The notes beneath the pieces are model-generated. The model made no database searches and was not told the DNA's origin. It worked only from the letters and a program-made list of their open reading frames with translations. A stretch of 61,465 nucleotides of DNA. Origin: an uncultured Aquificaceae bacterium (GTDB taxonomy: Bacteria; Aquificota; Aquificia; Aquificales; Aquificaceae). Within the stretch, counting starts at the first letter, position 1. The number at the start of each line of letters is the position of its first letter. A program made the translations under genes and the position numbers. This document shows, piece after piece, positions 4,127 to 59,577 of this stretch. The stretch covers positions 1 to 61,465 of the forward strand of contig CALIUI010000083.1 of assembly GCA_938048815.1 (NCBI GenBank). Direction: 5' to 3'.

Positions 4127-4319
4127 AGGGTATTTCAAAAATAGCCCATCTTATAGGACTACCGCCCTTGCCCCCTTTAGCAGGAGCTCGTGCACATACG
4201 GCAGATGACCATCTTCTCTTTAGGTCTTTTAGCAGGGCTAAATCTTTGTTGCTAAGTAAGATGAGCTTAGAGCATATAGTTATTTTGCCCGTCTTTTATT
4301 AGGGTTTTTGAAACAGCTT
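4127..4319 (-). mobile_element. Family C element: TIR-bounded internal-deletion derivative joining the 5' and 3' ends of a tnpB-related gene
   Basis: Ends AGGGTATTTCAAAAA and TTTTTGAAACAGCTT; minus strand 4289-4190 reads GKITICSKLILLSNKDLALLKDLKRRWSSAV, then joins the conserved 3' block. Confidence 0.75.
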
Positions 4320-4616
4320 CGGGTCTGGTGTGTCAAAGAGTTCTTCGTTCCTTTCTACCACCTTTTCCTCTATCGCCGCCGGTATGGGACCTGCCCATTT
4401 TCCACTTTCCAAGCTGGCTATGGGCTTGCCTTTTGGCGCATGTTTGCCAACTGCCTTTATCCTCACATTCACCATCCTACCAGCTCTGGTTTGACCTATA
4501 TCGGTGGCGCCCACCCTTACAATGTCATCGGGCTCAAGTTTATACCAAACTTGGTTTTCTATATCGTAGTAAAGGTCTGGGGGTATTTTACAGCCTTTGT
4601 ATTCTATTTGACTCAT
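4299..4616 (-). pseudogene. GcvH/LbpA-like lipoyl carrier protein, C-terminally truncated by family C element
   Basis: GCKIPPDLYY, VRVGATD and LESGKWAGP lipoyl-Lys motif; ends at FDTPDP where the TIR begins, so the usual N.DPYG.GW tail is missing; start taken at MSQIE. Confidence 0.8.
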
Positions 4617-5154
4617 AGAGAAGTATTTTACAGGAACGTTCAAGGACAGAAATATGAGAATAAGCATAAAAGGGCTCCAAGTCTGCGGAAAAGACACCAT
4701 GAGACCTAACTATTACCAACTTGGAATCCACAAGGGCTTCCGCCACAGTCCTTGCAAGCTCTATGCTTCCCGAAGGGCAGGAATCTATGACCTTTACACT
4801 TCCTATAAGGTCTTTTCCCTCGGAATCTATGAGGGTTATAAGGTCTTTTTCAAAGGATAAAACAACCGCACAAAGGGGATGGGCATGGACTAAGCACCTG
4901 TAGGAAGTCCTTAGATAAACCTCTCTATGCACGGGAAGCTCCGAGGAAGCCCTATCTTCAAGGATATGGCTTTTAGAGATATGGACCTTTATAAAGTCCT
5001 CTTCTCTTAATCTTCCAAGATGGCTACCTCTTCTTGTGATCACCATATCCTCTTCAAGCCTGTAAGAAAGGTTGCCAGCCCTTGCATCCACCAAGCCCTC
5101 CTTGTAGAGAAGCCTGCCAATCTCCATTAGCTTTTTAAGGGCTATCTTCTCCAT
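4588..5154 (-). CDS. Class II aldolase/adducin family protein
   Basis: GNLS, ASSELPVH, HAHP and HGV zinc ligands. Confidence 0.9.
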   Translation of the reverse strand: MEKIALKKLMEIGRLLYKEGLVDARAGNLSYRLEEDMVITRRGSHLGRLREEDFIKVHISKSHILEDRASSELPVHREVYLRTSYRCLVHAHPLCAVVLSFEKDLITLIDSEGKDLIGSVKVIDSCPSGSIELARTVAEALVDSKLVIVRSHGVFSADLEPFYAYSHISVLERSCKILLYESNRIQRL

Positions 5155-6509
5155 AGCAAGCTAAAGGCTACATAAAAGGATACACTAAAGGCAAGCCCCA
5201 CAAGCAGAGCAAACTCACTTTGGAAAACATACTCAAGGATAGCCCAGCTAAAAAAGCCCGATAGCATGGAGGCAATGGCGGAAACAGGGTTTGAACCTTT
5301 AAAGTAAAGCCCAGCCACCAAAGGCACAAAAAGGGAAACAAGGCTTAAAGCGGAGGAGCTTCCCACAAGGTGGTATATGGACTCTCCAGAGAGGGCAAAA
5401 GCCAAAGAGATAAGGGAAACCAAAAGAACGCAAAACCTTGTAAGCCAGAGAAATCCCTTGTCGGAAAGGTCTTTTATGTAAGGCTTTATAAGATTTTCAC
5501 TAAGCACAGAAGCGGGCGCCAAAACTGCGGCGCTTGCCGTACTCATAATAGCAGAAAGCAGGGCTCCAAAGAAAAGTATCTTCGTGGGAAGGCTTGCATG
5601 CTCCATTATCATAGTGGGAAGCATAAGCTGAGGGTCCAAGTCTAAAAGCTCTGGATATTTAACCCTTGCAAAAACAGCCAATATCAAAGGTATAAAAGCC
5701 ACCGTTAGGTACATAAAGCCCCCCAGTATGGCAGAAAGCACCGCCACCCTTTCGCTTCTTGAAGCCATAACCCTTTGAAAAACATCCTGTTGGGGTATAG
5801 ACCCAAGCCCTATGGTGATCCAAGCGGATATATAAAGGAAAACATCCTTTAAAGTTGCCTCTGGTAAAAAGCGGTAATATTCCATAGGTTGGGATTGAAG
5901 CATCGTAGATACCTTAGAAAAACCAAAAGATACCTCATAAAGAACCGCCACAAGTCCTACGATTATCATAATGGTCTGGATAAAATCGGTTAAGGAAACC
6001 GCCCACATGCCGCCCAAAAAGGTGTATAAAAGCACCACACCAAAGCCCACAAATATTCCCCACACTTGGGATACTCCAAGAACCAGATGGAGTATTATGC
6101 CAATGGCTACCGTCTGGGCAGCTATCCAACCAAAGTAGGAAAAAACCATCATAAGGCTTGCCACCACCTCTGCCCTTCTTCCATAAATTACCCTGTAGAA
6201 ATCCCCCATAGTAAGGAGGTTCATTCTGTATAGGGGCTTTGCAAAGAAAAGCCCTATCAGTATAAGACAAAGGGCTGCGCCAAAAGGGTCTTCTATAACT
6301 CCTATTAGACCTTCCTTTGCCATAACAGAGGAGGCACCAAGGACCGTTTCAGACCCAAACCATGTGGCAAAGGCAACAAAGGTAGCCATAAAAAGGGGAA
6401 GATTTCTACCCGCCAAAATATAATCCTTTGAATTTTTTACAAAGGTGCTCGCCAAAAGACCAATAAAAAGGGTACCCAGAATATACAGGAGGATGAACCC
6501 CAAAAGCAT
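5142..6509 (-). CDS. Sodium:solute symporter (SSS) family protein
   Basis: DYILAGR, ATWFG, YTFLGGMWAVSLTD, QRVMAS and SAIMST motifs; many TM segments. Confidence 0.92.
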   Translation of the reverse strand: MLLGFILLYILGTLFIGLLASTFVKNSKDYILAGRNLPLFMATFVAFATWFGSETVLGASSVMAKEGLIGVIEDPFGAALCLILIGLFFAKPLYRMNLLTMGDFYRVIYGRRAEVVASLMMVFSYFGWIAAQTVAIGIILHLVLGVSQVWGIFVGFGVVLLYTFLGGMWAVSLTDFIQTIMIIVGLVAVLYEVSFGFSKVSTMLQSQPMEYYRFLPEATLKDVFLYISAWITIGLGSIPQQDVFQRVMASRSERVAVLSAILGGFMYLTVAFIPLILAVFARVKYPELLDLDPQLMLPTMIMEHASLPTKILFFGALLSAIMSTASAAVLAPASVLSENLIKPYIKDLSDKGFLWLTRFCVLLVSLISLAFALSGESIYHLVGSSSALSLVSLFVPLVAGLYFKGSNPVSAIASMLSGFFSWAILEYVFQSEFALLVGLAFSVSFYVAFSLLWRR

Positions 6510-6518
6510 GCAACTATT

Positions 6519-7090
6519 TTATGAAATTTTCTCCAAAGGTTTGCCCTTTGTTTCCATACCTTTTATAGCCCAAAGAAGGGGAGCAAGGGCTCCAGAGAGC
6601 CTGCCAATTCTTCAACCTTGCCCTTTGAAAGAAGCCACCTTGGAGATTCGGGCACATACAGCCTTATAAAAACCACAAGCAAAGCCAAAAGACCACCCAA
6701 GAAGTAGGCAAAGCGCCAAGCAAAGGACTCCTCCATAAACTTTAAAAGAAGGATGGCGCTCAAAGATGCCATCAGGCTGCCCAAGTTCCAAAAGGCTGTG
6801 ATGGCACCATCCACTTTCCCACGATGACGAGAGGGAACAAACTCGTCTATAGCGGACTGTATGGCCGCAAACTCCCCACCAAGCCCTGCACCCGCCAAGA
6901 GCCTAAATAGAAGTGCCATCTCAAAGCTTTGGGTAAGGTACCGCCAGAATACAAAAGAAGGGTAAGAAGAAAAAGCCTTTTCCTGCCGTACTTATCGGCA
7001 AGGTAACCAAACAAAAGAGAGCCCAAAAGAGCCTCCAGAAGAAAGCCACCTACCATAAGAGAGCTTTGCTGTGATGTCAATTCAAGGCTG
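6519..7090 (-). pseudogene. MFS transporter remnant (frameshifts, internal deletions, 5' end replaced by family C end)
   Basis: Fragments GYLADKYGRK, FRLLAGAGLGGE, VPESPRWL and C-terminal METKGKPLEKIS lie in different frames; only ~570 bp remain. Confidence 0.85.
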
Positions 7091-7130
7091 AGGCTGTTTC
7101 AAAAACCTCAATTTAAACTATGCTAAAATT
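7091..7130. mobile_element. Family C element end fragment
   Basis: AGGCTGTTTCAAAAACCTCAATTTAAACTATGCTAAAAT; matches 152-190 in reverse. Confidence 0.7.
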
Positions 7131-7132
7131 AT

Positions 7133-7256
7133 ATGTTGGGTGAAAAATCTCACTTTTTATCGGTAGCGCAGGCATTCCTGCCTGCGACAAAAAACAGGTT
7201 GGGAGCCTGAACTACCAGAATTTTAAATTCCTTGTGGCGGTAAATCACCCGCCCCG
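7133..7256. repeat. Family A REP-containing MITE (one end lost)
   Basis: ATGTTGGGTGAAAAAT end, GTAG-CGCAGGCA-ttcc-TGCCTGCG hairpin, CAGGTTGGGAGCCTG hairpin. Confidence 0.8.
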
Positions 7257-7286
7257 GTGTGTGTATGTGTATTATTTTATAACTGT

Positions 7287-8618
7287 ATGAAAAAGAGCAA
7301 AAGCTTTTTTGTCTGTCAAGAGTGCGGTTATTCAAGTCCTAAGTGGTTGGGCAGGTGTCCCTCCTGTGGCTCATGGAACAGTCTTGTGGAAGAGCTAGAG
7401 CTTCCTAAAGCTCCTTCAAATAAACCCTCCCAAACTCCAAAGCCTATTTTAAGCTGGATAGAGGAGCTTCCCCATAGGTTAAGTACGGGCTTTTCAAACC
7501 TTGACGAAGCCCTTGGTGGTGGGCTTGTAAAGGGACAGGTGATACTCTTGGCGGGAGAGCCGGGCATAGGTAAATCTACCCTTCTTCTTCAGCTGTCAGA
7601 TAAGTTCTCCAAATCCTATGGGAAGGTACTTTATATATCCGGAGAAGAATCCCCCTCTCAAATTGGTATGAGGGCAAAGAGGTTAAAGGTCTCCTCGGAG
7701 GACCTGCTTACCCTTCCCGAGACAAACCTTGAAGCTTTGATAGAAGTTGTTAAAAGAGAAGAGCCCTCTTTGCTTGTGGTGGATTCCATTCAAACCCTTT
7801 ACAGTTTGGAACTCCAATCCTCTCCAGGCTCGGTGGCTCAGGTAAGGGAGTGTGCCTATAAGCTTTCGGAAGCCTGTAAGGCTTTGGATATACCCCTCTT
7901 TTTGGTAGGTCAGGTGAATAAGGAAGGTCTTCTGGCAGGTCCAAAGGTATTGGAGCACCTTGTGGATACAGTCTTGTACTTTGAGGGGGAAAGGTTTAAC
8001 TTCTACAGGGTTATAAAGATTGTAAAGAATCGCTTTGGTGCAAGCGGGAACGTGGCGGTTTTTAAAATGTCCAACTATGGCCTTGAAGAAGTACCAGAGC
8101 CCTCAGCCTTTTTCCTACAGGAAAGGGTGATTTCCCCCGGGAGTGTGGTTTTCCCCCACACGGAAGGCAGTAAGCCAGTACTCCTTGAGGTACAAGCCCT
8201 TACCATCCAAGCCCTTTATACCACACCCCAAAGAAGGACCCAAGGCTTTGACCCTAACAGGCTTTCCCTAATATTAGCTGTGCTTGAAAAGGAGGCGAAG
8301 ACCTTTACAAGGGATAAGGATGTTTTTGTCAATTTGGTGGGTGGGGTAAGGGTGGAAGAGCCCGCTATAGACCTGGCGGTAGCCCTTGCAATAGTTAGCT
8401 CAGTAAAGGACAAGCCCATAGAGGATTTTGTGATCTTTGGAGAGCTTGGTTTATCGGGGGAGGTAAGGGCGGTGCATTTTGCGGAAGAAAGGATAAAAGA
8501 GGGTCTAAGGTTTGGATACAAAAAGGCTATAGTGCCAAGGGGATGCGCCCTTGAGCTGGAGGACATAGAGCTGTTTTCCATAAAGCATATAAAAGAGGCT
8601 ATAGAAATCCTAATATAG
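7287..8618 (+). CDS. radA: DNA repair protein RadA/Sms
   Basis: C4 zinc finger CQECG..WLGRCPSC, Walker A GEPGIGKST, KNRFG; start moved to MKKSK. Confidence 0.96.
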   Translation: MKKSKSFFVCQECGYSSPKWLGRCPSCGSWNSLVEELELPKAPSNKPSQTPKPILSWIEELPHRLSTGFSNLDEALGGGLVKGQVILLAGEPGIGKSTLLLQLSDKFSKSYGKVLYISGEESPSQIGMRAKRLKVSSEDLLTLPETNLEALIEVVKREEPSLLVVDSIQTLYSLELQSSPGSVAQVRECAYKLSEACKALDIPLFLVGQVNKEGLLAGPKVLEHLVDTVLYFEGERFNFYRVIKIVKNRFGASGNVAVFKMSNYGLEEVPEPSAFFLQERVISPGSVVFPHTEGSKPVLLEVQALTIQALYTTPQRRTQGFDPNRLSLILAVLEKEAKTFTRDKDVFVNLVGGVRVEEPAIDLAVALAIVSSVKDKPIEDFVIFGELGLSGEVRAVHFAEERIKEGLRFGYKKAIVPRGCALELEDIELFSIKHIKEAIEILI

Positions 8619-8625
8619 TTTAAAC

Positions 8626-10632
8626 TTACTTTGAATAGGCTTCTTTGATCCTATATAGGGCTATTAATATTACGCAGGCTACCAAGGATACATAAAACAA
8701 AGCCATAAAGGCATTTACATAGTTATTAAAGATAACCCTTTGGGCTATCTCTACGCTTGGAATTGTGGGGGGTAGATTGCCAAGTTCTAAGGCTTGAAGA
8801 AGAAACTTTGCCTGAGATAAAAAGCCTATGGCCTTATCTGGATGGAACACCCTTTCCAAACCTGCGCTTATGGTGTTTACTGACAAAAAGAGAGCAGGAA
8901 TTGCCACAACCCAAAGATACTTAAACTTTCCGTTATTGGCAAGATACACCGTTGCTACCACTAAGGCTGTGGCAGCCAAAAGCTGGTTGGATATGCCAAA
9001 AAGGGGCCAAAGAGTCTTTATACCACCATAGGGGTCTATGACGCCCACGTATAAAAAGTAGCCCCACGCAAGTACTGTTATACCGCTTGTAAGAAGGTTT
9101 ATCCACAGATTTCTGTAATCCCTAAAGGCTGGTGATATTCCAGAGAGAAGGTCTTGGAGGATATACCTACCAACCCTTGTGCCTGTGTCTATGGTGGTAA
9201 GGATAAAAACCGCCTCAAAAAGTATGGCAAAATGATACCAAAAGGCAAGAAGGGCATCTCCCGTTATCCTTGTAAAGATAAGAGCCATACCTACGGCAAG
9301 AGCGGGAGCACCACCAGTCCTTGAAAGTATAGTAGGCTCTTCTATCTTTTTAGCTATCTCTTCTAAGTATTCGGGAGTTATGTAAAAGCCCCAGCTGGAT
9401 ATTTTACTGGCGGCTTCTTGTACCGTTTTACCAATCTCCGAAGCAGGGCTGTTTATGGCAAAGTAAAGACCGGGTTCCATAGAAACGGCGGCAATAAGAG
9501 CCATCATAGCAACAAAGGACTCTCCTAACATACCACCATAGCCCACAAGCCTCACATGACTTTCCTTATCAAGGAGTTTGGGGGAAGTGCCAGAGGATAT
9601 AAGGGCATGAAAACCAGAAACTGCACCACAGGCTATAGTGATAAATAGAAAGGGGAAAAGGTCGCCTTTCCATACGGGACCATAGCCCGTATAAGCAAAC
9701 TGGGTGATCGCCGGCATTTTTATCTCTGGGTTTACAAGGGCAACCGCCAAGGCTATAAGTATTACAGTACCAAGCTTTAAAAAGGTGCTAAGATAATCCC
9801 TTGGTGCAAGCAAAAGCCACACAGGCAGAACAGAAGCAAAGAAGCCATAAACCATAAGGGCTATGGCAAGATGAGCTTCGGAGAGGGTAAAAATCTTCCC
9901 AAGGACTTCCTTTTGGGCTATAAGCCTTCCCACGTAAAGGCTAAAAAGCAGGGCTATAGCGCCAAAAAGGAAAGAGTGTAGAACAGCCCCAGGCCTTATA
10001 CGCCACATATAAACACCCATAAGCATGGCTATGGGTATGGTCATAAAAACAGAAAAGGTAGCCCAAGGGCTTTGAGCCAAAGCCTTTATCACCACAAGCC
10101 CAAGCACCGCAAGAAGGATTATCAGAATACTGTATATAACCAAAAGGGTTATAAAGCCTCCCACCTTCCCAAGTTCTTCCTTTGCTATTTGTCCTAAGCT
10201 TTTTCCATCTTTCCTCATGGAGATGGTAAGGATCACCATATCCTGCACTGCACCCGCCAAAAGGACTCCCAAGAGTATCCAAAGGGTTCCAGGTAGATAA
10301 CCCATTTGGGCTGCAAGTACAGGTCCTATCAGCGGACCAGCGCCAGAAATGGAGGCAAAGTGATGGCCAAAGAGGACCCATTTGTTGGTAGGTACATAGT
10401 CAAGCCCGTTGTATAACCTATGGGCAGGCGTTGGGTTATTGTCGTTAATTTCAAAGACCTTGTAGGCTATAAAGTAAGAATAATACCTATAACCTATAAA
10501 GTATATGCAAAAAGTGGCTACCAAAAGCCATACAACACCTATGGACTCGCCCCTTGAAAGGGCAAGCACACCAAAAGCAATGGCACCTACTATAGAAACT
10601 ACTATCAGTATAAGCCTATCCTTCCATTTCAT
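8626..10632 (-). CDS. cstA: Carbon starvation protein A (peptide/pyruvate transporter)
   Basis: TPAH, FGHHFASISGAGP, WLLLAPRDYLS and ITIACGAVSGFH motifs. Confidence 0.95.
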   Translation of the reverse strand: MKWKDRLILIVVSIVGAIAFGVLALSRGESIGVVWLLVATFCIYFIGYRYYSYFIAYKVFEINDNNPTPAHRLYNGLDYVPTNKWVLFGHHFASISGAGPLIGPVLAAQMGYLPGTLWILLGVLLAGAVQDMVILTISMRKDGKSLGQIAKEELGKVGGFITLLVIYSILIILLAVLGLVVIKALAQSPWATFSVFMTIPIAMLMGVYMWRIRPGAVLHSFLFGAIALLFSLYVGRLIAQKEVLGKIFTLSEAHLAIALMVYGFFASVLPVWLLLAPRDYLSTFLKLGTVILIALAVALVNPEIKMPAITQFAYTGYGPVWKGDLFPFLFITIACGAVSGFHALISSGTSPKLLDKESHVRLVGYGGMLGESFVAMMALIAAVSMEPGLYFAINSPASEIGKTVQEAASKISSWGFYITPEYLEEIAKKIEEPTILSRTGGAPALAVGMALIFTRITGDALLAFWYHFAILFEAVFILTTIDTGTRVGRYILQDLLSGISPAFRDYRNLWINLLTSGITVLAWGYFLYVGVIDPYGGIKTLWPLFGISNQLLAATALVVATVYLANNGKFKYLWVVAIPALFLSVNTISAGLERVFHPDKAIGFLSQAKFLLQALELGNLPPTIPSVEIAQRVIFNNYVNAFMALFYVSLVACVILIALYRIKEAYSK

Positions 10633-11333
10633 TTAAGGTGTTTATTGAAGAAAGCTATGGTTTTCTCCCAAACGTCGTTGGCATACTCCTCGTGGTAAAC
10701 CTCTGGTCTTGTATCGTTAAAAAAGGCATGGTCTACACCGGAATAGATGATAAATTGGGCGTTAAGGTTCTCTTTATTGCATTCCTCTATAGCTTTTACT
10801 ACTTCCGATAGAGGTATAAAGGCATCCTTGCCTGCATGGATGGCAAGCACGGGAGCTTTTATCTTGGAAAAATCTATAGGCACTATGCTATAAAGCCCAT
10901 AGTAGGGCACTAAAGCCTTAAAATCATCAGCAAACTTTGCTCCAAAGTACCATGTGCATGTTCCACCGCAACAAAAGCCAGTTGCACCAAGCATAAACTC
11001 TCCGATTCTTGCCACATACCCCATATCTTGTTCTTTGAAATATTCAATGGCAGCTTTTACCATGGCTTCTGCTTCCGAAAATCTGTTTTGGAATAGGTCT
11101 TGCATAAGCCTTCCTGCATTTTCTGGGTCTTTTGCCCTTTGTCCCTTGTACAGGTCAATACCAAAGGCATAAAAGCCTTCCTTTGCGTATCTGTCGCATA
11201 CATCCTTTATATGATCTACAAGCCCCCACCACTCGTGGAACACCAAAACCATAGGTCCCTTGCCAAACTCTGGCTCCGCCAAATACCCAGAGACTTCCAC
11301 ACCATCCTTTGAAAAGCTAACCATCCTACCCAT
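10629..11333 (-). CDS. Dienelactone hydrolase family protein
   Basis: HEWWG, GFCCGG nucleophile elbow, HAFFND. Confidence 0.92.
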   Translation of the reverse strand: MGRMVSFSKDGVEVSGYLAEPEFGKGPMVLVFHEWWGLVDHIKDVCDRYAKEGFYAFGIDLYKGQRAKDPENAGRLMQDLFQNRFSEAEAMVKAAIEYFKEQDMGYVARIGEFMLGATGFCCGGTCTWYFGAKFADDFKALVPYYGLYSIVPIDFSKIKAPVLAIHAGKDAFIPLSEVVKAIEECNKENLNAQFIIYSGVDHAFFNDTRPEVYHEEYANDVWEKTIAFFNKHLK

Positions 11334-11427
11334 GGTTCAATCCTCCTTTTATAGATTCTATGCCTAAATTATATCCTAAAGCATGCATTTTGTGGATTTT
11401 TTGGATAAAGTTTATTAACCGCAAAAG

Positions 11428-12003
11428 GTGAAAAAGGGCTCTCTTATTTTTTCGGAGGGTGGTTTGTGTTCTGTAGTCCCCTTCTTAAAGGAGGGACAAC
11501 TGAAGGTCTATCTTATCTCAGAGTCAGGTAGGGAGCTCACCCTTTATAGGGTTCTCCCGGGACAGATGTGCCTTCTTGCTATGCTCACTGCCTATTCTAA
11601 AAGTGAGTACCCTGCCTATACGAGGGCTGAAGAGGATTCTTGCCTCTACATGGTTCCAGCGGAGATGGCAATAAAATGGTTTGAAGAAAAACACTGGTGG
11701 CGTTCTCTTTTTATGAGGGTACTATCGGAGAATCTCCTCACTCTTATGCTTACCATCAATTCAATGGTGTCGGAAAGTGTAAAGGAGAGAATAGTAAAGT
11801 ATCTCCTATCCAACTACAAAGATGGCTATCTTATAGAAAAGACCAATGAGGATATAGCAAAGGATGTTGGAAGTGTAAGGGTGGTAGTCAGTAGGGTTTT
11901 GAAGGAGCTTGAGAAGGAAGGCTTTATTAGCCTTTGTAGAGGAAAGCTGTTTATAAAGGATTATGAGAGTTTAAAAAGGCGGGTGGAGGATACCCGCCCA
12001 TAA
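11428..12003 (+). CDS. Crp/Fnr family transcriptional regulator (possibly N-terminally damaged)
   Basis: cNMP-type domain (SESGRELTLY) plus HTH (TNEDIAKDVGSVRVVVSRVLK); upstream in-frame ATG at 11383 is separated by TAA at 11416. Confidence 0.8.
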   Translation: MKKGSLIFSEGGLCSVVPFLKEGQLKVYLISESGRELTLYRVLPGQMCLLAMLTAYSKSEYPAYTRAEEDSCLYMVPAEMAIKWFEEKHWWRSLFMRVLSENLLTLMLTINSMVSESVKERIVKYLLSNYKDGYLIEKTNEDIAKDVGSVRVVVSRVLKELEKEGFISLCRGKLFIKDYESLKRRVEDTRP

Positions 12004-12004
12004 T

Positions 12005-12475: not shown

Positions 12476-12478
12476 GAC

Positions 12479-12791
12479 AGGGTGTTTCAAAAATAGCCCT
12501 TTCATAGGCTATCGCCCCCACCCCCTGAAGCAGGAGCTCGCGCCCATATAGGGTCTCCCCACAAGCCCCGAGTGCTTTATCGCCTCGGGACAGAGGGCAA
12601 AAAGCCCTCAGGAGAGAGCGCAGTCAGCGCCACTACTCCAAGAACTTCTTTTTGACAGGCTAAAAGCCTGCCCGAGCCCACTTGTTCCATCCAGAGGTGG
12701 GTCTCGCTCACTCTTGGAGCTTTACTTAATAATTATATACTTAGCAGGGGTTTCGTCAATGATTTTGCTATTAGGATTTTTGAAACAGCCT
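12479..12791 (-). mobile_element. Family C element with both TIRs, carrying the tnpB 3' region
   Basis: AGGGTGTTTCAAAAA...TTTTTGAAACAGCCT; interior shares blocks with 47948-48090. Confidence 0.8.
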
Positions 12792-12932
12792 CTATTACAG
12801 GCTAACAAAGAGGGAAGCGGACAAGCTTCATCTTTAATGCTAATTCTTGGTCTTCTTCTTATGTTTTTACAGGGCTATCTTGGAGGAAGCATAGTTTATG
12901 AACACATGGTAAAGCCTTGGCTTGGTTATTAG
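12792..12932 (+). pseudogene. C-terminal remnant of a membrane protein (DUF2231-like); 5' part lost at the element junction
   Basis: LMFLQGYLGGSIVYEH resembles DUF2231 C-termini; the ORF start at 12714 lies inside the repeat. Confidence 0.55.
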
Positions 12933-16070: not shown

Positions 16071-16164
16071 CTTAGCACCTCCTATAAGTGATAGGTATAT
16101 TATGTTGATTTTTTGGAAGTTTGCTATGAGCTTTATCAAAGATTTGCATTACATAAAGTTCTCC

Positions 16165-16503
16165 AGGTTGTTTCAAAAATAGCTCCTTTCACAGGACCAC
16201 CGATCCCACCCCCTGTAGCAGGAGCTAATGCCCACATTGAGTCTCCCCACATGCCCAGAAAGAGTCTTTCTTTAAGGTTAGCCTTTAACTTCTTTAGCAG
16301 GTCTTTATAAGCTTTTGGCATTCTTTCCTTTAGCCCTAAGCCTCTTCTTGCTATTACGTAGGCACTTGCTATGTCCTTTGTTAGCATATATTGTGGTGCA
16401 TACTTTAATATGCATATGGTAGATGTGAGAGATGGATTTATCCCTATAACTTGTATGCCAGTTCTTCTTGCTAATAGTTTTATTTTTTCCAATATCCTTT
16501 TAT
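16165..16503 (-). mobile_element. Family C element: tnpB-related gene 3' remnant ending in a TIR
   Basis: LEKIKLLARRTGIQVIGINPSLTS..LKYAPQY.LTKDIASAYVIARRGLG (RuvC-III region of TnpB-related proteins); TIR AGGTTGTTTCAAAAA at 16165. Confidence 0.85.
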
Positions 16504-16808
16504 ACGCCGAGCGAGAAATCCTCTTTCATCGGTAGCGCAGGCATCCCTGCCTGCGGCAAAAGACAGGCTGGAAGCCTAAAATACCTGGATTTTAAATTTT
16601 TTTGTGGCGGGGGTTTTGGTGAATAAATCCGTAAAAGGAACTTTGAGAGAACCCTTGATATTCTTATCTAAGAAGCCAATCGACAAGTCTATGAACCGAA
16701 AAAATTTACCTTCTTTAAGTTATTGGGCGTGGTCATTTTTGAGAATTTACGCACCAACGCCATATAGGGATTACATACGCCCCTACAAAGGGATCTTTCA
16801 ACTGGCGT
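16504..16808. repeat. Family A MITE interrupted by a family B insertion
   Basis: Ends ACGCCGAGCGAGAAAT and CTTTCAACTGGCGT; A sequence resumes (CGCCCCTACAAAGGGAT) after B. Confidence 0.78.
16612..16761. mobile_element. Family B MITE, complete 150 bp
   Basis: Imperfect TIRs GGTTTTGGTGAATAAAT / ATTTACGCACCAACGCC; paralog at 1-141. Confidence 0.82.
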
Positions 16809-24091: not shown

Positions 24092-24176
24092 TTAAAAAAA
24101 TCCACCCTTTGTGTGGCGTATGCTATACAGCTGCGCAGACATCCTTGCTTGCCAGTACCTTATAAAATTCATCTCA

Positions 24177-24324
24177 GGGTGTTTCAAAAACAGTTCGTGT
24201 TTCTGAAGCAGGAAAATATCTTTAAAGAGGGCTAAATCTTGCTTGCTAAAGAGGATGAGTTTAGTGCAGATGGTTATTTTGCTTATTGCCTAACAATGTC
24301 TATCATAGAAATTTTGAAACGCCC
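24177..24324 (-). mobile_element. Family C mini-element with both TIRs and a TCA target duplication; contains the tnpB 5' end
   Basis: TCA|GGGTGTTTCAAAA...TTTTGAAACGCCC|TCA; minus strand reads KITICTKLILFSKQDLALFKD, homologous to 4289-4220. Confidence 0.8.
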
Positions 24325-24329
24325 TCATT

Positions 24330-24446
24330 CCTGGATGGAATAAGTGAGCTCGGGCGGGTTAAAACCCGCCAAATAATTTCTTGAAGTAGTGGGGGTGCCC
24401 TCTTTTGAAAGGAGGAGTAGTCTATGGGTTATTTTTGAAATATCTT
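24330..24446 (+). mobile_element. Family C 3'-end remnant (degenerate)
   Basis: CTGGATGGAATAAGTGAGCTCGGGC matches the reverse complement of 12670-12695; ends GGGTTATTTTTGAAATATCT. Confidence 0.65.
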
Positions 24447-24454
24447 AGTATAAG

Positions 24455-43337: not shown

Positions 43338-43446
43338 ATGGCCTTTCAAAAATAGCCCTTCTTACAGGACTACCGTCCCCTGAAGCGGGAGCTCGTGTCA
43401 ATATAAAACCTTCTTAGGAGAAAGTGTAATTAGCACCACTACCTTA
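43338..43446 (-). mobile_element. Family C 3'-end remnant
   Basis: TTTCAAAAATAGCCC...CCCCTGAAGCGGGAGCTCG...AGCACCACTACCTTA as in 47948-48045. Confidence 0.7.
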
Positions 43447-43462
43447 AACTAGCAATTTAGGT
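43447..43462. mobile_element. Solo IS982-like inverted repeat
   Basis: AACTAGCAATTTAGGT; its reverse complement matches 61327-61342 at 15/16 positions. Confidence 0.65.
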
Positions 43463-47877: not shown

Positions 47878-47947
47878 GCTATCCTCCTTGACCTTTTAAA
47901 ATAATATATTTAGCGCTTATAAAACTTATATGAGAATTATCAAAGCC

Positions 47948-48306
47948 AGGGTGTTTCAAAAATAGCCCCTTTTACAGGGCTATCGCCCCCACCCCCTGTA
48001 GCAGGAGCTAACTTGGCAGAGAGTGCCGTCAGCACCACTACCTTAAGAACTTGCCAAGGATTAGGGATACCTTTGCTTGTTCCATCCAGATTATTCTGTA
48101 GTTTGTTTAACAAATCCCTATAAACCTTAGGTATCCTTTCCCTTAGCCCCAAGCCCCTTCTTGCTATCACATAAGCGGAAGCTACATCCTTTGTTAGCAT
48201 GTATTGGGGTGAATACTTTAATATGCCTATGGTAATGGATTTACTTCTATAACCTGTATCCCGTTCCTTTTTGCCAGTAGTTTTATTCTTTCCAGTATTC
48301 TTTTAT
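47948..48306 (-). mobile_element. Family C element: tnpB-related gene 3' remnant ending in a TIR
   Basis: LTKDVASAYVIARRGLGLRERIP..WQVLKVVVLTALS; TIR AGGGTGTTTCAAAAA; paralog of 16165-16503. Confidence 0.85.
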
Positions 48307-48456
48307 ACGCCCGGTGAGAAATTCTATTTTCATCGGTATCGCAGGCAGAAATGCCTGCGGTAAAAGAACAGGATAGAAGCCTGAACTACCGGAATTTTGA
48401 ATTCCTTGCGGCGGTCAATGAACCACCCCTACAAAGGATAATTTTTCACTCAGCGT
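48307..48456. repeat. Family A MITE, complete 150 bp
   Basis: Ends ACGCCCGGTGAGAAAT / ATTTTTCACTCAGCGT; three hairpins present. Confidence 0.85.
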
Positions 48457-52942: not shown

Positions 52943-53937
52943 TTTTCTGTTATGGTTTCTTCAACCTTCATACCAAAGTGTCTGCCCGCCTCCTCCACAT
53001 AGCCAAGGACTTCATCCCCTTCCTTTAACTCCGCCACAGATAGGGGGGTTCCATCTGGCCTTGTCAGTCTTATAGTTTCCGCATTTTGCAAAACTGCGCT
53101 TATTTTTTTGTTTTCGTATTTGCCCTCCACCAGAAGCATGGGCCTTCTTTCCACCTTTGCCCTTCCCACATATACCAGCCTACCTTTTCCTTGGTAGTCA
53201 TAAACCATAACCGCATCACCCGCAGAAAGCTCACAAAGATATTTGGTTTTGTTTTCTGGCACCCTTATATACATATGGACAGCGCCCGCATTTACCCTAA
53301 AGGGCCTTGAAGCCACATAGGGGTTTTCCTCTGTTTCCGCATGCACGAGGAACATACCCCCCGAAGAGTTGCCCACCAACATTCCCTCTCCACGGTGAAG
53401 TATAGAAGTGGTATCCACGCAAACTCTATCTCCAAGACCAAGGGGCAATATCCTTGTTATCTTTACCACCACAAGGGGTAATTTCTCTTCAGACTCTTCC
53501 AAAGCCTTACCTACCCTTTTTATGGTGTTTATATCCTTTGTCTTTAGGACCACACCCTTTACACCCTTTTCAAGCACCTTTATGGCAAGCCTTGCCTCTT
53601 CTTCATTTTTTACCACTGCGTAGAGCTCTTCCCTTTGAGCTATTAGGTTTTCAAGGGGGATTATGGTCCAGTCGGTGGTTTCTACTATAACTTTTACATG
53701 GGCTGGAAACCTGCCAGCCCTTTCTTCATCCTCCTTTCCCTTGATGAGCACATACACATAATCCCTGCCTTCCACCAGGTCTCCACCATCCTTTGAAGCC
53801 ACAAGAACCCTTCCAAGGGATTTTACTTCTTGAGTTTTTGATGGGTCGGAAAGCAGTATAACCTTTGCCCCCGACTCCAAGGCGGTGGTTATAAGCTTTT
53901 TATCATACTCTTGAGCCCAATACCAAAAATCCTTCAT
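52939..53937 (-). CDS. 3-dehydroquinate synthase II (archaeal-type)
   Basis: [44 protein letters not shown]. Confidence 0.92.
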
Positions 53938-53962
53938 AAAAAAACATTATAACTTATCAAAC

Positions 53963-54104
53963 ACGCTGGGTAAGAAATTATCCCTTGTAGGGGTAGTTTA
54001 TTGACCACCACAGAAAGTTTAAAATCCAGGTATTTTAGGCTTCCAGCCTGTATTTTTTTCCGCAGGCAAGGATGCCTGCGCTACCGATAAAAAGTGAGAT
54101 TTTT
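53963..54104. repeat. Family A MITE (nearly complete)
   Basis: ACGCTGGGTAAGAAAT end; GTAGGGGTAG.., AGGCTTCCAGCCT and CGCAGGCA-agga-TGCCTGCG-CTAC. Confidence 0.82.
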
Positions 54105-54128
54105 GGATTAAATTTATAACTCAAAAAG

Positions 54129-55287
54129 ATGAAAAATATAGAATGGATTCCCCATCGTATACTTCTCCTTTCTTACCTTGTGGTTATAATCGTAGGGTCT
54201 GTCCTTATATACCTTTCTGCCAACATACGGATAAGCTACATAGATGCCCTTTTTACCGCTACCTCTGCTACAACAGTTACAGGTCTTGTGGTGATTGATA
54301 CGGAAAAGGATCTTAGTCTTTTGGGGAAGTTGATGGTCCTTCTACTTATACAGGTAGGCGGGCTTGGTTATATGACTCTTACCACCTAGTCCTTTAACTA
54401 CCCGGGGGTACATGGGCTTGTAAGGTTTTTAAAAAGGATTGTGCCCGTGGTGTTCTTTATAGAGTTTCTTGGTGCCCTTGCCCTCTTTCCAAGCTTTTTG
54501 CTTAAGTTGAAGGATCCTTTCAACGCCCTCTTTGCAAGCCTTTTTCATTCCATCTCCGCTTTTAACAACGCTGGCTTTTCTACCTTTTCGGACAACCTCA
54601 CAAGGTTTAGAGGAGACCCATGGGTAAATCTTATAATAAGCCTTTTAATAGTCCTTGGTGGTCTTGGCTTTTATGTGATATACGAGGTGATCCTTTACTG
54701 GAGAGGCGAGCTTAAAAGATTGTCCACCCACACAAAGCTTGTCTTTTTATCTTCTGGCTTTCTTATACTTTTAGGCTTTTTTGGACTCCTCTACGACCTA
54801 TGGAGGTTTAAAAGCTTGTCTTTGGGCGAGAAGCTTTTAGCAAGCCTATTCCATAGCGTATCCGCAAGGACTGCCGGCTTTAACACAATAGATTTATCAA
54901 AGCTTTCCGAAGCATCCCAGTTTTTGCTTATAAACCTTATGTTTATAGGTGCATCGCCCGGAAGTACAGGTGGCGGTATAAAAACCATAACCGCAACGAT
55001 AATCCTCTGCCTATAATACTTTTACCGCCATACTCTTGGCGGAGCTTGAGGGTATAAGGCTTCTTCCTGCTCTTTTTGAAGCGGTTTCCTCCTTTGCCAC
55101 AGTTGGTCTTTCCCTTGGAAATCCGCAAGGATTAAGCCTTTGTGCAGATTTCTCTCCCTTTGGCAAAGCTATTATAATTCTTAACATGCTTGTTGGCAGG
55201 GTAGGATTGCTTGGTTTTATGCTTGCCCTTGTGGGAAGAAGCAAGCCAAGTCATATAAAACTCCCAGAGGCTAAGCTATTGATATGA
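54129..55287 (+). pseudogene. trkH: TrkH/KtrB K+ channel subunit, fragmented
   Basis: Pore motifs SATTVTGL, SAFNNAGF, ARTAGF and FATVGLS split over three ORFs with deletions. Confidence 0.88.
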
Positions 55288-55816
55288 AAAAGGTTTTTGG
55301 AGTTATTGGATTGGGTAGGTTTGGCTTTAACGTGGCAAAGACCTTGGCAGAGGGTGGTGCGGAGGTGATCGCCTGCGATATAGACGAAGAGAAGGTAAGA
55401 CAGATATCGGAATTGGTAAGCTCCGCTTTTGTATTGGACGCCACCGACGAAAAAGCTCTTAAGGAATCGGGTATAGCTAACGCAGACACGGTTATCGTAA
55501 GCATAGGAGAAAACGTGGAAGCCAGCCTTTTGGTGGTAGTGCAATTGATGGAACTTGGTGTGAAAGAGATAATAGCAAAGGCAGTTAATCCTCTCCATGG
55601 GAGGGTTTTGGAAAGGCTTGGAGTAAGTAGGGTTATACATCCAGAGAGAGATATGGCTATAAGGCTTGCTCACTCTTTAGAAAAAGGTACGATATAACAG
55701 TTCTTGCCATAAAGAGGGGAGAAAGGTTTGTAGTAAATCCCTCAAGCGACGAAAAAATACTTCCAAAGGACATATTGATGGTGTTGGGCAACAAAACAAA
55801 AATAGGCTCTTTATGA
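55284..55816 (+). pseudogene. trkA: TrkA/KtrA regulatory subunit with internal deletion/frameshift
   Basis: GLGRFG RCK-N ORF stops at 55697; RCK-C tail ITVLAIKRGERFVVNP...DILMVLG continues in another frame. Confidence 0.8.
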
Positions 55817-55828
55817 TATCATAAGCCT

Positions 55829-56935
55829 ATGCGCAAAGTTTTCATCTTATTGCCTGTTCTTCTTATAAGCCTTTTTGTACTTTTTATCGCCACGAAGGAA
55901 AAGGGAGAGAAATATCAGGTGGTAAAGGAGGAAGAAGTTAAAAGGTTAGCCTACGGTTCTGGATATGTGAAAAATAAGGAGTATGTTATTGTCAAATCGG
56001 AGGTTTCTGGTTATGTAAAGGAAATTTTTGTAAAGGAAGGGGATCCTGTAAAAAGGGGGCAAGTTTTGGCAATTATAGATTCAAGTGTCTTGGATGCCAA
56101 TATAAGGGAGGTATCCGAAAGGTTAAAGCTTATAAGGGATAGGTTAAGGGAAGGCTCCGATTACTTAAAAAGTTTGGAATCTGCCATAGAATCCGCACGC
56201 TTAAACATGGAAAACTCCAAAAAGGTTTTTGAAAGAAGGGAAAGGCTATTTTCTGAGGGTCTTATACCAAAGGAGTCCTACGAGCAAAGTAAAACTCAAT
56301 ACCAGGTAGCCCAAAAGGAATACGAAAGATTAAAAAGTAGCTACCAAGACGCTGTGAGGTCTTTGAAAGCAGAAGAAGAGGTTTTAAGGGCAGAACTCCA
56401 GAGGTTTCAAAAAGAAAAGGATAAGTACATCATAAGAAGCCCCATAGAGGGTAAAATCCTTAAGAAGTTTGTAAGTGTAGGAGATTACATAAACCATATT
56501 AGTCAAGAAAACAGGCTTTTTTCCGTAGGTTCAAAGGAGTTGGAAGTTTGGTTAGAGGTGGATGAGGAGTATGCGAGCAAGATAAGGGAAGGGCAGAGAG
56601 TGATCCTAAGGGTGGATGCCCAGCCAGAAAAGAGCTTCGAAGGAAAGGTTTTCCAAGTAATAAGGGAGATAGACAGAACAAGGAAGTTAATAACGGTAAA
56701 GGTAGAGGCACAGCTTCCAGAGGATATTCCCTCTGGTGCAACTGTGGACGGACAGATAGAGATAGAAAGGAAGAAGGCTTTACTAATACCGGCAAGCGCC
56801 TACAGAGACGGGTATGTACTTCTCTACGATGGGGTAAGAAGGGTTAAGGTGCCTGTAAAGGTGGGTGAAAGGTACGGAGAGTTTTTGGAGGTTTTGGAAG
56901 GCTTAAAGGCTGGGGATAGAGTAATACTGCCATGA
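55829..56935 (+). CDS. Efflux periplasmic adaptor (MacA/HlyD-like)
   Basis: SEVSG, VKEGDPVKRGQVLA, coiled coil, IRSPIEG, GLKAGDRV. Confidence 0.9.
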   Translation: MRKVFILLPVLLISLFVLFIATKEKGEKYQVVKEEEVKRLAYGSGYVKNKEYVIVKSEVSGYVKEIFVKEGDPVKRGQVLAIIDSSVLDANIREVSERLKLIRDRLREGSDYLKSLESAIESARLNMENSKKVFERRERLFSEGLIPKESYEQSKTQYQVAQKEYERLKSSYQDAVRSLKAEEEVLRAELQRFQKEKDKYIIRSPIEGKILKKFVSVGDYINHISQENRLFSVGSKELEVWLEVDEEYASKIREGQRVILRVDAQPEKSFEGKVFQVIREIDRTRKLITVKVEAQLPEDIPSGATVDGQIEIERKKALLIPASAYRDGYVLLYDGVRRVKVPVKVGERYGEFLEVLEGLKAGDRVILP

Positions 56936-58152
56936 ACCATATCCTTTTTGTTGCCTTTAAGATGCTCCTTCAGAGGAAAAGGCAGACCTTGGTGTCTATC
57001 TTGGGAGTTTCTATTGGAGTTTCGGCCTTTATAGTTATGAGTTCCTTGATGCTTGGCTTTCAAAATTATTTTATACAACAGGTCATAGACCTTGAACCCC
57101 ATATAAGGATTAAGCCAAGGGAAGAAAAGCAAAAAGTAGAGGAATACTCAATCCTTTTGGGCGAAAAGCCAAAGGAAAAGGACAGAATATTGGGATGGCA
57201 GGAGATAATACAGGAGGTGGAGAGGAATCCAGAGGTGCTTGGCGTGGCGCAAAGGCTTGTAAGCAGAGGTATAGCCAAGTACGGTATAAAGGATAAGCCC
57301 ATTACCATAATAGGCATAGACCCCCAGAGGGAACCCAAGGCTTCTGTAGTTGAAAGATTTCTAAAATACAAAAGACTTGAAAAACTTGAGACCAACAGAA
57401 CGGGCATCATAATAGGCCTTTTGGTAGCAAAAAGCTTGGGAATAGAGGAAACGGGAAAAAAGCTTATACTTGTGGCTCCCAACGGACAGACTATACTGGC
57501 AACTGTGGAAGACTTTTTTGAATCGGGCATAACCAACATAGACGATACAAGAATCTACATAAACATAAAAACTTTGCAAAGCCTATTGGAAAAACAGGGA
57601 GAGGTTAACGAGATAGTGATAAAGATAAGGGATGTAAACAAGGCGGAAAGGCTTTCCAAGGAGTTTTCTCAAAAAATTCCCTACGAAGTGGAAAGTTGGC
57701 AAAGGGCATATAGGAACTTTTTAAGCATCTTCAAAATCCAAAATACCATAACCTATATGATAGTTTTTGCCATTTTGACCGTTTCTGCCTTTGGCATTTT
57801 TAACATCATTATGATGACTGTGTTGGAAAAGAAAAAGGATATAGCCATACTTATGGCTATGGGCTATACGAGGAGGGATATACTTCTTATATTTTTGGTG
57901 GAAGGCTTCTTTATAGGACTTATGGGAGCCCTTATTGGATCTTTTTTAGGGTTTGGTGTGCAGGAGTACCTTGAGTCGGTAAAGCTTGATGTGGAAGGTC
58001 TTATAAGAACAAAGGGCTTTGTGCTGGATAGAAGCGTAGCCTTTTATTTTTACGCCTTTGGCTTTTCTCTCTTCTTTTCCCTTTTGGCAAGCCTGTATCC
58101 AGCCTACAAGGCAAACAGGCTTAACCCCGTAGATATCTTTAGAAGCCAATAA
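56932..58152 (+). CDS. ABC transporter permease (MacB/FtsX/LolC-like)
   Basis: GVSIGV, KKKDIAILMAMG and YPAYKA..LNPV motifs. Confidence 0.9.
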   Translation: MNHILFVAFKMLLQRKRQTLVSILGVSIGVSAFIVMSSLMLGFQNYFIQQVIDLEPHIRIKPREEKQKVEEYSILLGEKPKEKDRILGWQEIIQEVERNPEVLGVAQRLVSRGIAKYGIKDKPITIIGIDPQREPKASVVERFLKYKRLEKLETNRTGIIIGLLVAKSLGIEETGKKLILVAPNGQTILATVEDFFESGITNIDDTRIYINIKTLQSLLEKQGEVNEIVIKIRDVNKAERLSKEFSQKIPYEVESWQRAYRNFLSIFKIQNTITYMIVFAILTVSAFGIFNIIMMTVLEKKKDIAILMAMGYTRRDILLIFLVEGFFIGLMGALIGSFLGFGVQEYLESVKLDVEGLIRTKGFVLDRSVAFYFYAFGFSLFFSLLASLYPAYKANRLNPVDIFRSQ

Positions 58153-58223
58153 AATAAACTCTTTGGGGCAGCAAGCCCCTACTGGTGGATTGCCCTTACA
58201 GGTTAAAGGATTTTTCAGTTATA

Positions 58224-58304
58224 CGGTATCGCAGGCATCCCTGCCTGCGATAAAAGACAGGCTGAAAGTCTGAACTACCAAACAGATAATCTCCCACTCA
58301 ACGC
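58224..58304. repeat. Family A partial copy
   Basis: TATCGCAGGCA-tccc-TGCCTGCGATA, CAGGCTGAAAGTCTG, end CCCACTCAACGC. Confidence 0.78.
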
Positions 58305-58350
58305 ACAATAGGATTATAATATTCTTATAACCTAAAGGAGGTAATAAAAA

Positions 58351-58557
58351 ATGACCATGGATAGAGCTTTGAGGCTAACATCCGGTGCTGTGCTTTTGCT
58401 TGTTTTTCTGATAGCTATACTGCCCTCTGATATTCAATGGTTCTGGAAGCTCTTTATAGTTTTTATGGCTATAAACCAAATACAGTCTGCCTTTACAGGA
58501 TGGTGTCCTGTGGTAAGTTTTTATAGAAGGCTTGGTATAAGGGAATGCCAGTGTTAA
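58351..58557 (+). CDS. DUF2892 (YgaP-like) membrane protein
   Basis: MDRALRL..G and QSAFTGWCP motifs; SD AAGGAGGT. Confidence 0.85.
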   Translation: MTMDRALRLTSGAVLLLVFLIAILPSDIQWFWKLFIVFMAINQIQSAFTGWCPVVSFYRRLGIRECQC

Positions 58558-58841
58558 TCGGTTTCTAATTCTATCTCGCAGCCCTCTTTTTCTATTACCA
58601 ACTGACAGGTAAGCCTTCTGTTTTCTTCGTATTCTCCTATCCTCCAAAGGGTCTCCTCTTCTTGCTCTGAAGGCTCTGCCAAGCATTCAAGTCCCTTTAC
58701 CACTGTACATACACAAACACCACATTGACCGTCGGTGCAACCAAATTCCACACCAGCTTTCTCTATCTCGTGGTGATAGTCGCCAAACTTTTCACCAACG
58801 GGTATGTCAAGGACCTTTTTGTTTATTTTAACCTTAGCCAT
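58554..58841 (-). CDS. [2Fe-2S] ferredoxin
   Basis: FGCTDGQCGVC...RLTCQ. Confidence 0.92.
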   Translation of the reverse strand: MAKVKINKKVLDIPVGEKFGDYHHEIEKAGVEFGCTDGQCGVCVCTVVKGLECLAEPSEQEEETLWRIGEYEENRRLTCQLVIEKEGCEIELETD

Positions 58842-58866
58842 GGTATATATTTTATTGCAAAGCTTT

Positions 58867-59427
58867 TTAAAAGCTTTGACTTAGCTCAACTATTTTACAA
58901 AAACCACCATGAATTCTACCCACAGGCTTTAGAGTGTTTATTTCCAATCCTTCCGCTCCAGCAAACAGAACTCTGCCAAAAATAAGGTCGTAGTCAAAAA
59001 GTTCCTCGTGTTTTAAAAGTTTGCATTCAAGCCACGCCTTGGTATTAGCTATGCGAGGTACCTTTACCTTATAACAGGGCGCTGGCTTGAGTCCTGTTTT
59101 TTCAAACTCGCTAATCTCTGGTGCAAAAGCTTCCGAAGATATAACCACTTCCCTTAGAAATTCTTCGGAAACAAGGTTTATAACAAACTCACCAGTGCTT
59201 AGTATATTCCTTGAGGTATCTTTCCTTTCTCCATTATCCCTTTTGCTTATGGATATAAATACAACGGGGGGTTCATCGCATACTGCGTTGTAAAAGCTAA
59301 AAGGAGCAAGGTTTAAGACTCCTTCTGGGCTTATGGTGGACACCCATGCTATAGGCCTTGGAATTACAAGGCTTGTTAATACTTCGTAAGGGTCAAAGCC
59401 TTGAGGATTTTCCATATCAAAGAGCAT
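58867..59427 (-). CDS. Flavin reductase family protein
   Basis: PRPIAWVST, NLAPFSF and KDTSRNI..GEFVIN. Confidence 0.9.
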   Translation of the reverse strand: MLFDMENPQGFDPYEVLTSLVIPRPIAWVSTISPEGVLNLAPFSFYNAVCDEPPVVFISISKRDNGERKDTSRNILSTGEFVINLVSEEFLREVVISSEAFAPEISEFEKTGLKPAPCYKVKVPRIANTKAWLECKLLKHEELFDYDLIFGRVLFAGAEGLEINTLKPVGRIHGGFCKIVELSQSF

Positions 59428-59477
59428 TGCTTAACCTCTCCTCCTCATAGAATTAATTATGTACCAAAGCTGTACTG

Positions 59478-59577
59478 ATAGCACTCTCTTCTGTTTGGGG
59501 CTTGTGGAAAGACCCAATATAAGCATGAGCTTCTTGCTTCAGGGGACGTACGAATGGGCTATTTTTTGAAACACTCT
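59478..59577 (+). mobile_element. Family C 3'-end remnant
   Basis: GGGGCTTGTGGAAAGACCC...GAGCTTCTTGCTTCAGGGG...GGGCTATTTTTTGAAACACTCT matches the reverse complement of 12479-12570. Confidence 0.72.

Follow-up and report, generated by a model that had tools for sequence, protein, structure and literature searches.

How does a gene for a TnpB-related nuclease come to lie between terminal inverted repeats (TIRs)? The question is raised by a stretch of 61,465 nucleotides (nt), referred to here as the window, of contig CALIUI010000083.1 (GCA_938048815.1) from an uncultured Aquificaceae bacterium. The genome assembly (G000 in the coordinates below) comprises 1.59 Mb in 133 contigs and breaks at repeats. 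Ten loci in the window had been proposed to share one end sequence, and all ten are pieces of one element family. The account favoured here is that a tnpB derived from an IS607 element sits in a TIR element moved in trans by an IS5-like DDE transposase, with the -35 promoter box serving as target-adjacent motif (TAM). As a whole it is considered probable; its structural and evolutionary part is held with high confidence, and the homing step at the -35 box is given about an even chance.

Full-length element and target duplication

The original prediction supposed a non-autonomous parent consisting of tnpB between two TIRs, and a full-length copy was found elsewhere in the genome, at C121:12692-14246. 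This element of 1,555 bp runs from GAGGCTGTTTCAAAAA to TTTTTGAAACACCTTG and carries two 16-bp TIRs and a single open reading frame (ORF) of 499 amino acids, the start of which lies 56 nt inside the element and the stop codon of which overlaps the right terminus. The 10-mer ATCAAGGTTA flanks it on both sides as an exact 10-bp target site duplication (TSD), and the paralogous C91 locus is empty, with a single copy of this 10-mer. The paralogues are a duplicated two-component locus (G000:C91:1-475 and C121:12590-14635, 96% identical), in which the sensor-kinase start of the C121 copy is interrupted by the full-length element.

A 3-bp TNA target had been proposed and was expected to emerge from filled and empty sites; the C121/C91 paralogues show a 10-bp duplication. 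Across the 25 same-locus end pairs in the genome, an exact 10-bp TSD was found in two and an exact 2-3-bp duplication in none. Left and right flanks match over 9-11 bp across contigs in 12 cases, compared with 1.3 by chance, and relatives have an exact 9-10-bp TSD in 11/29 paired copies. The duplications are 9-11 bp long instead of three, and the supposed TCA duplication at 24177-24324 of the window consists of the TIR's own terminal bases. IS1031-type elements are of the TNA-target type, and this identity was rejected on the same count (0/25).

Pairs without a TSD carry swapped flanks (e.g., L124 and L126), which indicates recombination between copies, and the window's own two-ended copies are of the same kind. 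As the frame stays open to the contig edge in 10 of the 14 left ends near contig ends, further full copies have probably collapsed in the assembly. An inverted-orientation flank duplication at G000:C18:12131-12346 and L064:552-2821 suggests intramolecular transposition or inversion.

The single ORF, TIRs and 10-bp TSD do not correspond to the features of IS200/IS605 elements (Y1 tnpA, hairpin ends, no TIR or TSD). Those of IS607 elements (serine recombinase, GG ends) are absent from the TIR copies and present in sister clades and at G000:C12. It could be argued that the TIRs are independent insertions of miniature inverted-repeat transposable elements flanking IS605 or IS607 tnpB copies by chance, and insertions of IS5-like elements in the left ends of IS607 do occur (L092). 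However, the TIRs directly adjoin the ORF, there are no IS607 ends, and the unit as a whole is found between matching TSDs in many genomes; TSD-flanked full-length units refute this reading, the probability of which is taken to be minimal.

A canonical IS607-type tnpB at G000:C12:4343-5878 (L050), which has a CCAGG end and is preceded by coding sequence for a serine recombinase, serves as an in-genome control. Another copy, truncated by the end of its contig at G000:C131:1-1300 (L049), represents a divergent subfamily of TIR-tnpB elements that is 61% identical and has its own, different internal promoter.

Element copies in the window

With up to two mismatches, the end motif gave 11 matches in the window compared with 1.16 expected, and none of 100 shuffles scored equally high. 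Genome-wide, 152 ends were classed as 69 right, 50 left, nine of a second left type (L2), three of type L3 and 21 without class. Eight of the ten proposed loci match at this threshold (177-191, 4127/4305, 7091, 12479/12777, 16165, 24176/24311, 47948 and 59563); the other two, 24330 and 43338, are genuine family remnants with the outer TIR decayed past two mismatches. Three copies had been described as two-ended (4127-4319, 12479-12791 and 24177-24324), which is correct, with the amendment that the real ends lie 1 nt farther out, the true terminal base being G at the left end and C at the right. Two peptides noticed beside the ends were both found and map onto the N- and C-terminal parts of full-length TnpB. 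The window loci are deletion derivatives of the 1,555-bp element; 12479-12791, which had been counted as a tnpB deletion copy, is without the N-terminal tnpB piece and belongs to a separate mini-element type.

140-192, minus strand: left-end remnant with TIR at 177-192 and an extended -10 promoter stub of tnpB (end-motif match)
4126-4320, minus strand: 195-bp two-ended deletion derivative, left TIR 4305-4320 and right end 4126-4198, keeping tnpB codons ~1-30 (4201-4298); flanks not duplicated
7090-7123, plus strand: left end alone, interrupted by a second repeat family (end-motif match), and a perfect minus-strand TTGACA (7075-7080) lying 9 nt beyond it
12478-12792, minus strand: 315-bp predicted guide-RNA-only mini-element of type L2, with TIR, own sigma70 promoter, non-coding omegaRNA-like region and right TIR
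12732-12759, minus strand: internal promoter of this mini-element, TTGACG, 16 nt, TATAAT (11/12)
16164-16487, minus strand: right end and tnpB 3' fragment with RuvC-III (parent nt 995-1204 and 1442-1555), the 5' part replaced by the second repeat family
24175-24326, minus strand: 152-bp decayed two-ended derivative with tnpB N-terminal codons and no target duplication
24331-24447, plus strand: decayed remnant of an L2-type mini-element, consisting of its 3' part and a degenerate right TIR
43338-43447, minus strand: right-end remnant with decayed outer TIR
47947-48291, minus strand: right end and tnpB 3' fragments (parent nt 995-1176, 1340-1412 and 1493-1555), the 5' part replaced by the second repeat family
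59478-59578, plus strand: right-end remnant with TIR at 59563-59578 (end-motif match)

TnpB protein

The relationship to TnpB was borne out by profile and fold matches. The 499-amino-acid protein scores 56 bits with TIGR01766 (cut-off 32) and 55.7 bits with TIGR01765 (cut-off 47.25), and a Foldseek search with a predicted model (predicted local distance difference test score 72.6) returned Cas12f as top matches and TnpB (8iaz/8exa) at E ~2e-6. The RuvC D-E-D residues (D217, E280 and D351) are invariant in 10/10 aligned proteins. The ratio of non-synonymous to synonymous substitution rates (dN/dS) is 0.08-0.14 in eight of ten pairs, the remaining two being saturated, and TnpB is under purifying selection in both TIR clades (dN/dS ~0.1). 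The parent TnpB is intact-looking and, judging from its sequence and modelled fold, is predicted to be an RNA-guided nuclease.

TnpB matches were found in 34 of the 61 family genomes searched, and the closest proteins in named records are those of Aquificaceae. Cas12r of Thermus phage Lalka27a (L254:1159-2958) is 36% identical over 93% of the protein and is an active RNA-guided nuclease with an ARG protospacer-adjacent motif (PAM) (10.64898/2026.04.20.719267). Thermus phage phiLo also encodes a 41% relative.

Origin of the tnpB gene

It had been predicted that this TnpB changed its transposon host, and the nesting of the TIR clades among IS607 TnpBs upholds this, with IS607 as the former host. 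The nearest non-TIR proteins (54-61%) belong to IS607 elements of thermophilic Bacillota, Thermotogota and Dictyoglomota, which have recombinase remnants, GG ends and insertion after GGAGG-like motifs. Two unrooted trees were built, one a quick mixture-model tree of 43 rows and the other a careful LG+G4 tree of 30 rows, and both contain two TIR clades, needing two changes of end type. A single origin of the TIR-TnpBs was rejected, as a tree constrained to group the 11 TIR rows is worse by 178 log units (p-AU 5e-53, approximately unbiased test). The window clade is sister to the Bacillota/Thermotogota IS607 group with 100/100 support; the TIR-B branch is long in the 30-row tree and its exact placement unsure. 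IS607 rows surround both TIR clades, which points to a direction of change from IS607 to TIR, and tnpB likely came from an IS607 element as far as these sequences can tell.

Two loci appear to represent capture intermediates. In L092 the left end of an IS607 element harbours an IS5-like element, inserted 10 nt upstream of the -35 box of that end, and in L178 a miniature insertion sequence lies 9 nt before tnpB's own -35 box, the composite being bounded by a 9-bp TSD.

The probable mobilising transposase

An IS5/IS1182-like DDE transposase had been suggested as mover. A transposase with the same TIR was indeed found in relatives, where elements L092 and L094 encode DDE_Tnp_1 proteins of 278-305 amino acids and are flanked by TSDs. 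These ORFs score 45-48 bits with PF01609 (cut-off 23); their best NCBIfam model is NF033579 (IS5) at 68-72 bits, under its cut-off of 140, hence the label IS5-like. The IS5-like part of the suggestion therefore stands and the IS1182 part does not (24-28 bits compared with a cut-off of 270). The closest named protein is the ISAae1 transposase (33% identity), and the ISAae1 element also shows a 9-bp duplication. A mobiliser of the ISLre2/mutator type, prompted by the promoter targeting described below, was rejected, with no mutator match in Pfam/NCBIfam and an offset of 8-11 nt, not 15-17.

The L3 ends of the window's own genome are right ends of a transposase element of this kind, with a frame matching a PF01609 protein at 78%. 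The hybrids C68:6009 and L081 hold tnpB and transposase pieces in divergent orientation between TIRs, which indicates that two-gene composites existed. From these shared ends, the tnpB element was likely moved in trans by a borrowed IS5-like DDE transposase.

Promoter targeting and orientation

A -35-like hexamer was scored where a TTGACA-like word with at most one mismatch lay 8-11 nt outside the element end. It was found at 31/55 left ends and 1/69 right ends in the window's own genome, at 17/39 left and 3/45 right ends of the relatives' tnpB elements, and, by hand tally, at 10/27 left and 1/32 right ends in the symmetric-TIR clade alone. Transposase elements have it in both orientations (10/25 left and 5/12 right, the latter leaving out the false match L021). 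The hexamer and the TSD typically share their first base. A -10 box was found 16-18 nt further on at 10 of 18 perfect TTGACA sites compared with 22 of 129 other non-coding TTGACA words (p 8e-4), so that many targets are real promoters; the copies are related by descent, and the -35 p-values are overstated. The full-length C121 copy is itself inserted at a -35-like word at a gene start. It appears from these counts that the transposase finds -35 boxes either way round and that tnpB-bearing copies persist almost only with the box 5', the side on which the TAM must lie.

Elements stacked end to end 9-12 nt apart were observed at G000:C124:15149-15161, C1:625-638 and C106:2999-3011, and at L010, L063 and L064, consistent with repeated insertion at one promoter. 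In the IS607 relatives (L014, L133, L157 and others), insertion takes place behind a GGAGG-like Shine-Dalgarno motif, in many cases directly ahead of the start codon of a host gene. Each of the two mobilisers associated with this TnpB family is directed at a signal for gene expression.

Predicted guide RNA and mini-elements

The last ~250 nt share a fold in 11 copies, with 98% of cells paired, and two-sided changes occur at 16 pairs compared with 5.4 in shuffles, a figure inflated by the overlap with the ORF and by the relatedness of the copies. The loop of a homologous hairpin is complementary to the terminal 5-7 nt of the element and changes with the end type, being CYUGG with CCAGG in IS607, CAGGG with CCCUG in the window clade and GAGGYU with ARCCUC in the other TIR clade. 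Pairing over at least 5 nt was found in 85-90% of comparisons of a loop with its cognate terminus and in 0-3% of crossed ones (13, 32 and 7 ends, the IS607 set of 7 including the spurious L046). A pseudoknot of this kind is formed by the ISDra2 omegaRNA with nucleotides -6 to -2 (PMC10097598). An Rfam search of the right-end RNA region gave no match. The structure and loop swaps fit the prediction, made by analogy, of an omegaRNA-like molecule with a terminal pseudoknot.

The mini-element at 12478-12792 is one of seven similar ones that were aligned, an eighth L2 end (C47) being a short remnant. The layout is TIR, TTGACG-16-TATAAT, omegaRNA-like region, TIR, and one of the mini-elements has a 10-bp TSD. 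The relative G029 has a homologous mini-element with a different promoter and its own TSD. Predicted guides have a second match (14 nt) elsewhere in the genome in 11/69 cases; of nine inspected, three were chance matches of 14-15 nt, three duplicated filled flanks and three empty alleles or paralogues.

Proposed mechanism of homing

An IS5-like element would insert 9-10 nt upstream of any -35 box, tnpB's own promoter included, and thereby provide tnpB with its left TIR. The right TIR would have replaced the IS607 right end, the omegaRNA pseudoknot loop changing to pair with the new terminus. The guide would then consist of the duplicated target followed by the right flank, matching an empty allele as a TAM of 5'-TGNCA and 16 or more nt, and matching only 9-11 nt at the filled left junction. 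A match of 9-11 nt would be too short for cutting. Empty alleles (from precise excision, on sister chromosomes or in incoming DNA) would be cut and repaired from the filled copy, so that the element is kept and spread, and mini-elements that have a promoter and an omegaRNA and lack a gene would rely on both proteins from elsewhere.

Cleavage by TnpB at a -35-type TAM is a predicted activity. Support by analogy comes from the active 36% relative and from IS607 and IS605 elements, in which transposase target and TAM coincide (10.1101/2023.11.20.567912). Promoter targeting may supply a fixed TAM, which would explain two captures. More tentative, with the balance slightly against it, is the full proposition that an IS5-like transposon homing on sigma70 -35 boxes captured IS607 TnpB twice, each time with the TAM retargeted from GGAGG to the -35 reverse complement, the guide RNA re-paired to the new TIR and promoter-driven guide-only satellites.

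Several observations weigh against the favoured account. The empty site C91:374 has TGTCA and a 26-nt match to the predicted C121 guide and is intact in the same assembly, which speaks against cutting, except if the two contigs derive from separate strains or the RNA of the C121 copy is impaired; strain mixing may have occurred, as another filled/empty pair (C82/C132) is present. The TAM would need two switches from the GGAGG-like motif of the IS607 relatives, and the Cas12r PAM is ARG. A good -35 match is missing at 24/55 left ends, the motif is looser in the second TIR clade, and host selection against read-through into promoters could produce the orientation bias. The hairpin loop equals the first 5-7 nt of the TIR and could be a DNA-level repeat. 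The protein does not reach the cut-off of NF040570 (guided_TnpB; 43.9 compared with 100 bits) and its alignment lacks the C4 zinc finger; the IS607 sister proteins lack it likewise, and such loss is noted for some TnpB branches (PMC10691335). Finally, no intact cognate transposase of the window clade was found, only remnants, the single-contig relative G029 included, so that mobilisation in trans is argued from shared ends and remnants. The searches returned two unrelated fragments for PF01609 in the window's own genome, nothing for the L092 protein in five genomes, only remnants or 24-47% relatives for P0001 in 148 genomes, no homologues of greater length, zero and one remnant in metagenome scans, and no match for the right-end pattern in viral contigs.

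The intact predicted target beside an intact copy and the left ends without a -35 match speak for a reading in which element and history are as described but TnpB does not home at the -35 box. Orientation would then reflect host selection, a tnpB/omegaRNA transcript leaving the right end into a promoter being harmful, or, in the window clade, unequal ends, and TnpB would be kept for another RNA-guided or transposition-related role. End dissymmetry is described as setting orientation in mutator-like promoter-targeting elements (PMC3942029), and cut-and-paste already leaves a break, to which homing may add little (PMC13565253). However, the bias also holds in the symmetric-TIR clade while same-TIR transposase elements insert both ways, the catalytic triad and low dN/dS are kept in both clades, and the hairpin loop tracks the terminus. 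This explanation is regarded as unlikely, though of some weight.

It is also conceivable that the main role of TnpB-omegaRNA is to bind the filled left junction and leave it uncut, the -35 box and the 9-11 nt of duplicated target acting there as TAM and guide seed; the bound complex would modulate the neighbouring host promoter or block further insertions. This geometry is a direct consequence of the target duplication, and two species retain guide-only mini-elements with strong promoters. Against this, the matching flank was lost by recombination in 23/25 pairs here and 18/29 in relatives, so that the match no longer holds; several insertions are commonly stacked at a single promoter, and the catalytic triad is intact. 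We consider such a role improbable by a wide margin.

Comparison with known systems

A TnpB rehoused in a TIR/DDE element, implied to be new in the original prediction, had already been described, solo copies moved in trans included (PMC10691335). Six DDE-associated branches of prokaryotic TnpB (DDE-1 to DDE-6) with inverted terminal repeats are reported there (Altae-Tran et al., 2023), and such branches are elsewhere named as ISL2, IS630 and IS1031, the pairing being called rare (PMC13565253). The window clade may be among the six; it differs from them, as described in that source, in its ISAae1-related IS5-like mover, 9-11-bp TSD, promoter targeting and lack of a cis transposase. Because of this lack, the rule given in PMC10691335 (DDE within 1 kb) would usually miss copies of the window type.

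The IS607 TnpB elements of thermophilic Bacillota, Thermotogota, Dictyoglomota and Aquificota (TIGR01765/TIGR01766) are alike in protein (54-61%), 3' RNA hairpins and sister-clade position, and differ in their serine-recombinase remnants, GG-type ends, absence of TIR and TSD, and GGAGG-like insertion motif. ISAae1 (IS5-like, Aquifex aeolicus plasmid ece1) shares 33% transposase identity, related 16-bp ends and a 9-bp TSD but has no tnpB. Promoter targeting is described in PMC3942029 for mutator-like enzymes only; the ISLre2, TnGBS and ISKra4 elements treated there (p-MULT 3 and 4) have mutator-type transposases, a distance of 15-17 nt and no TnpB, compared with DDE_Tnp_1 and 8-11 nt here. Fanzor1 in eukaryotic DDE transposons is likewise a TnpB-like nuclease rehoused in TIR/TSD elements. 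It has lost the terminal pseudoknot, and its short 5' TSD is part of the TAM (PMC13565253), whereas the present elements appear to retain the pseudoknot, and their TSD would serve as guide seed. Cas12r of the Thermus Lalka phages (10.64898/2026.04.20.719267) belongs to a thermophile-specific TnpB branch, with the 36% identity given above, but is CRISPR-associated, uses an ARG PAM and lies outside any transposon.

In the mostly open-access literature searched, no paper dealt with this element or described IS5-like elements that target promoters, nor was there a report of such targeting at a fixed distance for an IS5-like family. What would be new beyond the known TnpB/DDE pairing is the promoter-TAM link, the double capture and the re-paired guide RNA; promoter targeting, the second capture and the guide-only mini-element had no place in the original prediction. 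A 2026 review asks why TnpB rarely pairs with prokaryotic DDE transposases and suggests TAM inflexibility as a barrier (PMC13565253); these elements offer a direct test, in which the transposase target has a fixed motif beside it, capture took place twice independently and closely related IS607 sisters can act as controls. If true, they are a natural, replicated experiment in rehousing an RNA-guided nuclease in a cut-and-paste transposon. A comparison of TAMs between sister proteins (55-60% identity) would reveal the way in which TAM specificity changes, and compact, thermostable nucleases with novel TAMs may result. Recombination among the ~150 promoter-adjacent ends also reshapes this small genome.

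Other repeats in the window

The second repeat family (ends ATACGCC...GAGAAATT) has 58-64 ends in the genome and truncates several tnpB copies; in the window it lies at 7127-7260, 16500-16600 and 48300-48345. In G029 (L054:381-1357), an intact IS982-like transposase of 282 amino acids with the ends of this family and a ~22-bp direct repeat is inserted inside an IS5-like remnant. A third family, at 1-140 and 16640-16770 of the window, has 20 genome matches, often adjoining the other two families. The last 139 bp of the window (61327-61465), at the contig end, are 99-100% identical to the ends of C48, C87, C91 and C125 and are another recent high-copy repeat that breaks the assembly.

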